From Octopus vulgaris (Eukaryota), in assembly GCA_951406725.2 (NCBI GenBank), contig OX597822.1:108128001-108192000 (forward strand): a stretch of 64,000 bases of DNA, in the 5' to 3' direction. Both the position numbers and the translations under genes were made by a program. Positions within the stretch are counted from its first letter, which is position 1. Each line of letters opens with the position of its first letter. This document shows positions 23,713 through 25,178 of this stretch, piece after piece. Below the pieces are notes generated by a model. It saw nothing but the letters and a program-made list of their open reading frames with translations, was not told the origin of the DNA and did not search any database.

Positions 23713-24355
23713 GTGTGTGTGTGTGTATAAGTATGCATATGCATATCTATCTATCTATCAATCTATCTATATATCTTTCTATCTATCTATATCTATCTAT
23801 CTATCTATATACATATCTTTCTGAACACACATACACACACATATGGGAAAGAAGCAATGCTTCATTGGTCTTAAAATATATTTAATGCAGATATTTCCCC
23901 TCATTATTGATAACATATCCCCATCATCTCTTTTAGGCGAATTGTACAATACTCCCAGACTAGAACAGTCAACAAATACAGGATGACCAACACTAACCTA
24001 AACACAGGTTTCACACCAATATTTCCTTTAAACATCGGGGTCTGCACCAATACCAGGAAAAAGAGAAAGCCGACAAGGTGGCCTGGATTACAAAAGTATC
24101 ATTTAGTCAAACCCTAAAGGTTCCTTTAGCTTTGGCAAAGAAACAACAAAAATTCTCCTTTCTGAGAGACCTTACTGCAATCAAAGTTTGTATATAGCAT
24201 TTGTAGAACTGGATCTGAGATTGAAATGTAACGAATGCAGGAGTTAAAGATTATATATATATATATATAACGTCGGATGTAATCAATTGAACCACACGCG
24301 TATTTATCGTTATGGTAAAATCTGGCGTGTGATTGAGTGGATTTCATCCAGATAG

Positions 24356-24437
24356 TTTTGGCTGACGAGCTACAAGTGGATTTTTTTGTAAGTAAAATTA
24401 CATTTAATTCATTAATAGCGAAACAATTGTCCCAAAA
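24356..24437 (+). ncRNA. Type I hammerhead ribozyme, copy 1 (predicted cut after 24431)
   Basis: ttttgg CTGACGA gcta..tagc GAAA caattg TC ccaaaa: full core, 6-bp stem I, palindromic ACAAUUGU, GUC. Confidence 0.92.
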
Positions 24438-24890
24438 TAATCTGTATTTTTGTTATTTTTTATTTGCCCTGTCCGTGTGAGCTAACAATCGTACTGTCTT
24501 TCATGGGAAACATGTATTTTTGTGGTTGAAACCTTTTGGATTAACTGGTGCTAGAGTGAGCCATATAGTGACCACTCTCTTATATTTATTTTGTAAAAAT
24601 ATTATAATATATTATAAAATATTATAATAATCCAGGTTTCTCGGAGCACTAGGCCACTTGGTGTTGAATAGATATACTATTAAATTAGTATCTAATTCTC
24701 TCACCCTTATTAATTAATTATAATTATGCTGCATTTATTTCTAAATGCTGTATTTGTTTTCCGTGAAAGTTTGGCGCGCTGTTAGTTGGGGCATTTGAAT
24801 TATAACGTCGGATGTAATCAATTGAACCACACGCGTATTTATCGTTATGGTAAAATCTGGCGTGTGATTGAGTGGATTTCATCCAGATAG

Positions 24891-24972
24891 TTTTGGCTGA
24901 CGAGCTACAAGTGGATTTTTTTGTAAGTAAAATTACATTTAATTCATTAATAGCGAAACAATTGTCCCAAAA
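24891..24972 (+). ncRNA. Type I hammerhead ribozyme, copy 2 (predicted cut after 24966)
   Basis: Identical to copy 1. Confidence 0.92.
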
Positions 24973-25125
24973 TAATCTGTATTTTTGTTATTTTTTATTT
25001 GCCCTGTCCGTGTGAGCTAACAATCGTACTGTCTTTCATGGGAAACATGTATTTTTGTGGTTGAAACCTTTTGGATTAACTGGTGCTAGAGTGAGCCATA
25101 TCTTATATAACCACTCTCTTATATT

Positions 25126-25178
<53 letters not shown>

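Follow-up and report, generated by a model that had tools for sequence, protein, structure and literature searches.

RZ535, a young octopus retrozyme family whose insertions point to PLE-dependent priming on both strands of (TA)n targets

The RZ535 copy in the window

The window, by which we mean the whole 64,000-nt stretch of Octopus vulgaris DNA that was analysed, holds an insertion of 866 nt on the forward strand (24266..25131, +) between two halves of a (TA)n target. The left half (24252..24269, no strand) adjoins the 5' junction, and its last 4 bases (24266-24269) also match the inserted element, a microhomology at the 5' junction; the right half (25132..25192, no strand) is joined at a 3' end that we call site A. 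The insertion is a single arm of 1.62 units of a repeat named RZ535, 5'-truncated at monomer position 370, where positions in the monomer (marked M) are counted from 24432.

The first-pass annotation had described two nearly identical direct repeats of about 300 bp, each with a complete type I hammerhead ribozyme, placed around a non-coding spacer and bordered by (TA)n on both sides. The repeats are present, with 24266-24565 and 24801-25100 being 100% identical over 300 nt at a spacing of 535, the (TA)n lies both left and right of the element, and the core, stems and GUC of a hammerhead can be read in each repeat. The figure of 300 nt is right for the identity and wrong for the extent of the repeat: the second copy continues to 25131, past a private replacement of 4 nt by 8 nt close to the 3' end (25102..25109, +), a local sequence difference between the repeats that was probably a slip early in cDNA synthesis. 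The spacer has to be given up, being the remainder of a circularly permuted 535-nt unit, and the 300-bp repeat length is accidental because it was set by where reverse transcription stopped.

Hammerhead 1 (24349..24444, +) has a stem I of 13 bp with one A.A mismatch (24349-24361/24432-24444, +), where 6 bp had been claimed; this is the open helix, hence the ribozyme is type I and not type III. The core CUGACGA (24362-24368, +) is followed by stem II (24369-24419, +), in which base pairs 24369-24372/24416-24419 close a long extended stem, by GAAA (24420-24423, +), and by a stem III formed by the palindromic ACAAUUGU, after which comes GUC (24429-24431). Hammerhead 2 (24884..24979, +) is identical to it. 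The predicted self-cleavage after 24431 and after 24966 would free the RZ535 monomer (24432..24966, +; 535 nt from cleavage site to cleavage site), a non-coding predicted circle with long paired stems and a GC content of 32%, and the 535-nt unit predicted from these sites proved to be the true repeat unit of the family. Read round the circle, its longest ATG frames are 19 aa in sense and 52 aa in antisense, and RZ535 contains no frame with RT and GIY-YIG domains and is not an autonomous PLE. Within the monomer lie start site A (24573..24592, +; M161 = 24592), a 130-nt "tail" that separates the start sites (24593..24722, +), and start site B (24700..24722, +; M291 = 24722), which the window copy did not use.

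By itself the window copy looks like an LTR-type retrozyme, with two 300-bp terminal repeats round a 235-nt internal part, that would have been moved by an LTR retrotransposon. Across the family, however, arm 5' ends are scattered over the whole unit with no fixed 5' boundary and no LTR, arrays run up to 13 junctions and the ribozyme is of type I, and we give this reading practically no weight. Plant LTR retrozymes, as described in the available text of PMC7229834, share with RZ535 two hammerheads that release a circle-forming monomer (a prediction in the case of RZ535) and have a type III ribozyme, true LTRs, a PBS, a PPT and a 4-bp duplication, the first two of which are lacking in RZ535.

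Family size, class and ribozyme conservation

The expectation of further copies was borne out in the assembly that contains the window (2.8 Gb, 227 contigs), where the exact 22-nt core of the ribozyme occurs 2134 times and its reversed control 0 times. End junctions were counted 433 and 589 times on the forward strand, the reverse-strand counts being set aside because each site is listed several times there, and these forward counts therefore correspond to about 900 and about 1200 ends, and to roughly a thousand insertions if not more. At least half of the sampled words of the stretch are held by 19 of the 21 public runs listed (7 studies; none recorded as RNA). Because of the 2134 cores against 0 and the 19 of 21 runs, chance can be dismissed, as can the local assembly artefact that had been named as a danger for the duplication.

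Arrays and ends were read at 72 loci, which comprise the window, the other 38 of the 39 candidates that were scored out of 921, biased towards likeness to the window, and 33 loci on contig C1, which are all those behind the first 100 pattern matches and were chosen by position. They are dispersed head-to-tail arrays on many contigs with unrelated flanks, and their arms span 0 to 13 cleavage sites (51 arms). A satellite or segmental duplication spread by unequal crossing-over, or else an assembly artefact, with the hammerhead incidental in either case, would account for the head-to-tail order and for the periodic variants of two long arrays described below, and Li, Clavereau and Pollet 2026 (10.64898/2026.07.22.740005), in the part of their text available, invoke local amplification for retrozyme arrays. 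The dispersal among unrelated flanks, the fixed 3' ends, the random 5' ends and the inversions all speak against amplification at the level of DNA, as do the 19 public runs from 7 studies against an artefact, and we regard either as highly improbable.

RZ535 is a young, new family within a known class, the animal non-LTR retrozymes, and the earlier characterization of the element as retrozyme-like, non-autonomous, young and multi-copy holds on every point in the genome survey. The class was defined by Cervera and de la Pena 2020 (PMC7229834), where circles are described, in the sections available, from coral, mussel and axolotl. RZ535 has in common with it non-coding, dispersed tandem units with a type I hammerhead in each, a GC content below 50% and arrangements from dimers to multimers, and, as proposals, a circle and a dependence on PLEs. 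Its unit of 535 nt compares with 150-450 nt in the accessible text of PMC7229834 and with 51-972 in that of 10.64898/2026.07.22.740005; unlike the known members it has a long extended stem II missed by Rfam, and its insertion ends are mapped. The latter study, as far as its text was available, uses homology to connect retrozymes with PLE pLTRs across 35 genomes, no mollusc among them, leaves the insertion ends untreated and reports cleavage for one of nine Xenopus dimers. Our literature search found no report of this family; most subscription journals, Repbase, Dfam and supplements, which lay outside its scope, may catalogue it.

An older subfamily (L166, L235-L244) is 77% identical to the young one and keeps start sites A and B. 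Its loci mostly carry a single ribozyme, unlike those of the young subfamily, and none of the 40 that were scored is a long array.

Rfam returned no hammerhead match at the gathering score or at E<=10, probably because stem II is long. Compared with shuffled sequences, the hammerhead region folds at z -4.6, the linear monomer at z -6.9 and the circular form of the family majority sequence at z -7.6. The active hammerhead fold (-21.7 kcal/mol) is separated by 5.6 kcal/mol from the minimum-energy fold (-27.3 kcal/mol), a more stable alternative that traps the ribozyme core, and the stem III duplex has an energy of -6.4 kcal/mol. Given a gap of this size, efficient cleavage of the monomer is not assured by the folding model, and a dimer or a protein may help.

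The 11 catalytic core positions change only at U4, in 2 of 56 loci, and position 7, which is the free one in the hammerhead consensus, varies in 18 of the 56. The constancy of the 3' half of the core is in part by construction, because that half was the search pattern for 33 of the loci. Stem I contains a mismatch in 11 of the 56 loci. When 5 young ribozymes are aligned with 7 old ones, a comparison in which most changes were inherited once between the two groups, 5 pairs of stem I prove to be changed on both sides, making 14 such cells, a number reached in 0 of 500 shuffles; pair 5/99 is broken in 6 of the 12 aligned sequences. With its conserved core and covarying stem I, the ribozyme is under selection.

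Start sites, inverted arms and the template

Across the 72 loci the 3' ends cluster at two fixed positions separated by 130 nt. Of 58 A ends, 43 have M161 as their last templated base, and of 56 B ends 39 have M291; 5 more 3' ends, from which the anchor motif is absent, were left unplaced. A TA run follows 112 of the 114 classified 3' ends, compared with 11% of random window positions, and is also found at the 5' junction of 17 of the 26 single-arm loci. The (TA)n on both flanks masks any target duplication, which in animal non-LTR retrozymes is longer than 4 bp where present, and the flank contig of a deep public run (X15) ends at the TA run, so that no empty target site was seen. RNA just past site A reads UGUA and that past site B ends in UAUA, and each start site could, on the basis of these letters, form 4 base pairs with a TA primer. 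In the insertion, the G beyond the start site has usually become A.

Two-armed insertions make up 44 of the 72 loci; 26 are one-armed (15 A, 11 B), 1 is a tandem A,A duplicate and 1 is irregular, although it too carries both an A and a B end. The arms of a two-armed locus are joined at their 5' ends and point outwards, and every one of the 44 (29 window-like, 15 on contig C1) has one A end and one B end, for which the probability under independent choice is 5e-14. The tail is accordingly present on one arm only in 44 of 44, with a length of 130 nt and not 30-40. Our literature search, with subscription journals and supplements outside its scope, found no report of such strict start-site pairing in retrozymes.

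The closest known architecture is that of endonuclease-bearing PLEs, for which PMC8557442 and PMC3846280, in the passages available, describe partial tandems, an inverted 5'-truncated copy and a 30-40-bp tail at one end, and attribute the inverted arm and the tail to self-priming or to resolution by the endonuclease. RZ535 shares with these PLEs the joining of arms by their 5' ends, a tail on one arm and an AT-rich or (TA)n target, and differs in having no ORF, a tail of 130 nt, arms of many units and a one-of-each pairing that is strict when counted. In the anole Poseidon element, PMC11167929 reports, in the text available, two internal start sites that bound the "tail" and extension of both strands in vitro; there the start sites have no homology to the cut DNA, whereas those of RZ535 could form about 4 base pairs with a TA primer.

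Among 41 simple joints, 26 have an overlap of 0-7 nt and 2 an overlap of 34-35 nt at an internal palindrome; the remainder have 2-30 nt between the arms, gaps that in five cases become smaller once short extensions are included. In 19 of the 44 two-armed loci each arm is longer than one unit. If the first cDNA or an antisense template folded back and primed itself, the second end being set by endonuclease cleavage (as proposed in the available parts of PMC3846280 and PMC8557442), the arms of a locus should share a haplotype, which they do, and arm starts at most 40 nt apart, some at an internal palindrome, are found in 7 of the 41 simple two-armed loci. Fold-back cannot, however, produce the 6 loci among the 41 in which neither arm lies wholly within its partner (5 clear cases, 1 by a few bases). 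Among the other 35 loci, 28 have arm starts offset by 43-521 nt; the longer arm is the A arm in 19 of 44 loci, and a 4-mer able to pair with TA is present at both ends. Because of the 6 non-contained pairs and the mere 7 offsets of at most 40 nt, fold-back fails as an account of the second arm, and we consider it improbable.

The units themselves carry information on the template. Divergence, computed on 351 of 360 units (9 under 92% identity were dropped, and pieces below 60 nt unused), amounts to 0.0039 substitutions per site for units of one arm, 0.0038 for units in different arms of one locus and 0.0221 when loci are compared. As divergence within a locus is far below that between loci, each insertion represents one haplotype. 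None of 123 arm 5' ends is at a cleavage site (0.23 expected), and none is within 2 nt of one (1.15 expected), which excludes a pile-up there and not rare events; the junctions across cleavage sites are exact in 250 of 253 cases, with no scars. A cut linear monomer was thus not the template, because run-off 5' ends are missing and the junctions are exact. The 48 well-covered loci contain 34 haplotypes, and at 8 of the 48 (covered three times) a private substitution occurs in every covering unit, in 5 cases across both arms, from which a one-unit bottleneck follows; these private changes fit one unit that was copied many times.

Two further patterns are of a different kind. Private changes in some units only are found at 7 of the 48 loci, and two long arrays have imperfect periodic variant patterns, of period 4 in L047 (C28:10732667-10738832; p 0.011, six lags tried) and of period 2 in L044 (C3:179746911-179753718; p 0.027, six lags tried). 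The periodic patterns count against a circle model, because a single monomer circle cannot yield them, and together with the partial private changes they need multimer templates, template switches or later duplication. Periodicity as a proof of multimer circles was dropped, with only two arrays showing it, both imperfectly.

The same PLE machinery and start sites might have used a linear multimer that is transcribed from long donor arrays and stays uncleaved, with the hammerhead idle or acting at a different stage. Exact junctions and the lack of cleavage-site 5' ends fit such a template equally well, donor-size arrays with 10-13 junctions exist in the genome, periodic or partial variants are found in L044, L047, L063, L104 and L109, the inactive fold competes with the ribozyme, and PMC11167929, in the text available, reports that anole ribozyme mutants inserted normally and that uncleaved RNA was the main substrate of the anole PLE in vitro. 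A new mutation, however, hits one unit of a multimer, and yet 8 of 48 loci have theirs in all units. The 34 haplotypes in 48 loci would each require a long homogeneous donor, while linear copying would presumably only shorten arrays; the 14 units of L117 are diverged by only 0.03% internally, the ribozyme core is conserved and stem I covaries. We hold a linear multimer template to be unlikely.

We consider it probable that RZ535 is instead a PLE-dependent animal non-LTR retrozyme that is copied from a circle, with priming on both target strands. A locus with at least two hammerheads would be transcribed on its + strand, as contigs from public runs guessed to be RNA suggest, and the hammerheads would excise the 535-nt unit, perhaps assisted by a protein or by dimerization through the palindromic stem III; by analogy with other animal retrozymes the unit would then be ligated into a circle. 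An RT-GIY-YIG protein of a PLE would cut (TA)n and prime at A and B, where the mapped ends lie, with about 4 nt of TA pairing. Each target strand would prime one cDNA, one from A and the other from B in keeping with the counted pairing, and both would copy the same RNA haplotype, as the divergence values indicate, and probably the same molecule. Each cDNA would roll for 0 to 13 turns before the far ends were joined with 0-7 nt of overlap or a short filler. Where priming occurred only once, the far end of the cDNA would join the other half of the (TA)n, an order of events that would produce the architecture seen in the window.

Rolling reverse transcription of circles was proposed in a review (PMC7761336), which in the text available gives no conserved motif indicating the partner; RZ535 adds to that picture features of PLE type, namely its two fixed start sites, its inverted arms and its (TA)n targets. 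Since RZ535 is young, abundant and well assembled, start sites, their pairing, the haplotype and the one-unit bottleneck become countable footprints. What deserves notice here is this unusually clear mechanistic footprint, by which two proposed mechanisms are turned into counts, and it bears on how animal retrozymes re-enter the genome and on why PLE arms invert with one tail.

Candidate partner enzymes and candidate editing

Other repeats of this genome follow the same rule of ends. Searched genome-wide, hammerheads with a short stem II give 629 matches (control 7) and those with a long stem II 9132 (control 308). Most of the short-stem-II matches listed belong to a 353-nt repeat (L157:1181-1533; L135-L162), which has inverted arms, (TA)n targets and two fixed ends separated by 43 nt. 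It has one end of each kind in 7 of 7 clean loci, two of which share identical joints, with 2 further loci irregular, and no sequence in common with RZ535 (best E 2.2). A third non-coding hammerhead family (L168, L169) has a unit of about 600 nt by eye and a tail of 103 nt; its L169 has one of each end (1/1), and its B end resembles that of RZ535 in 15 of 22 positions. With the two PLE families described next, the one-of-each rule is seen in five families of the genome, and in the older RZ535 subfamily it holds at 8 of 8 two-armed loci (11 loci read).

Two PLE groups are candidate partners. The first encodes open RT-GIY-YIG frames of 781 aa (L095; one of each end in 1/1, tail 38 nt) and is a young, high-copy family with 15936 candidates and many open frames; a search of solved structures with the 781-aa protein gave no match. 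The second, PLE-H (L204-L215, L228-L234), is Hydra-like and has about 17000 candidates. It has one of each end at 6 of 6 clean loci (3 unclear). Its tail, at 150-158 nt, is four times as long as is usually stated, and its RT and endonuclease are separated by a long stretch rich in asparagine. The motifs RWL, DKT and CxxC..E..N..CxH were read from L228, L211 and L229. The Hydra clade is characterized in PMC8557442, as far as its text was available, by RWK, DKT, the lack of CCHH, CxxC/CxH round E and N, CxCX5C, a canonical hammerhead and (TA)n targets, and PLE-H appears to belong there by this motif list, an assignment made by motifs and not by a tree. The CxCX5C linker is absent from the PLE-H copies read, which have the asparagine-rich stretch in its place, and none of these copies has an unbroken full ORF.

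PLE-H shares with RZ535 the canonical hammerhead, long stem II, (TA)n targets, long tail and one-of-each ends, but it has no extended homology to RZ535, and neither has the 781-aa family, these being the two PLE groups compared. The best local match of the RZ535 A and B motifs is to the A and B ends of the PLE-H copy L209, in register, and not to the ends of the 781-aa family. In ungapped comparison with PLE-H, the A motif matches at 15 of 22 positions in the expected location (p against shuffles 0.02 for one length, 0.08-0.15 for two others), and the test failed for the B motif; a gapped re-test of the end motifs, designed after the data had been seen, gave p 0.12-0.45. In our judgement the partner enzyme has somewhat better than an even chance of being of Hydra type, the 781-aa family being a much weaker candidate and some other enzyme one slightly weaker still. 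For a direct test of rolling-circle double target-primed reverse transcription, RZ535 supplies a 535-nt RNA, two candidate enzymes and (TA)n as the target.

Four of the public runs (X1, X2, X7 and X15) were compared from contigs only, their nature as RNA being guessed. In X1 the family assembles as one 565-nt contig (535+30), flank-free, of a single haplotype and with one difference from the window; run assemblies presumably use 31-letter words, which would make 565 nt the length of a closed cycle. Such a one-unit cycle is equally produced by a tandem array. The assembly of the deep run X15 is fragmented into thousands of pieces, as expected of a mixed family. X15 covers the unique left flank, and X1, X2 and X7 do not. 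We infer transcription, monomer excision and a circle.

Among the differences listed for X2, 11 of 17 are A>G on the ribozyme strand. The candidate A-to-I editing sites are monomer positions 53, 54 and 62 (25019..25028, +; first-unit equivalents 24484-24493). At 25020 and 25028 the share of G is 68% and 57% in X2, 12% and 5% in X7, and about 0.1% or less in X15, and in the genome G occurs at monomer position 54 in 0 of 262 units and at position 62 in 3 of 263. The A>G differences in X2 and X7 look like A-to-I editing of the sense transcript, as far as contig sequences can indicate; the literature search, with subscription journals and supplements outside its scope, found no report of edited retrozyme RNA. 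Locus L112 has G at the candidate site 62 in all its units. An excess of A>G in genomic copies was considered as a trace of editing and set aside as weak, the ratios of A>G to T>C being 18:13 and 17:11 for inherited changes (p 0.04 for the latter) and 14:15 for singletons.

Tentatively, a more far-reaching version of circle copying can be put forward, in which a dimeric PLE enzyme would start on one expressed, A-to-I-edited circle at two dedicated sites, each serving one strand of the cut (TA)n, and would roll round it from both; edits would be written into all units, and one-of-each ends would be general to PLE integration. If this were true, every two-armed insertion would result from two rolling-circle reactions, and editing would supply retrozyme variation that is inherited. 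For the genome itself, RZ535 is an active source of insertions into (TA)n and a possible natural substrate of editing.

The window also contains a 5'-truncated PLE copy of the 781-aa family (25500-27020, -), of which the GIY-YIG end (26655-27020) matches Pfam PF01541. The remnant at 26655-27020, which lies 1.5 kb downstream, was considered and rejected as source or partner, its family having no RZ535 homology and ends unlike A and B; an enzyme role for that family is possible. The 3' part of the truncated copy contains 102-nt repeats (26108-26415) with CCAAT- and CRE-like words, and its 3' region three imperfect repeats at a spacing of 59-126 nt (25632-25896). Near 25540-25585 there is a hammerhead-like core in which U3 and A8 replace C3 and G8.

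Elsewhere the 64-kb window holds no tRNA gene. LTR-retrotransposon pol-like broken frames (11588-13128, +) show RT and RNase H motifs by eye, and LINE fragments with endonuclease and RT motifs, also by eye, lie at 27461-30276 (-), where a (TA)n tract interrupts the fragment, and at 47847-48416 (+). A U6 snRNA copy (21110-21214, +; Rfam RF00026, 101 bits) has no T-run terminator at its end.
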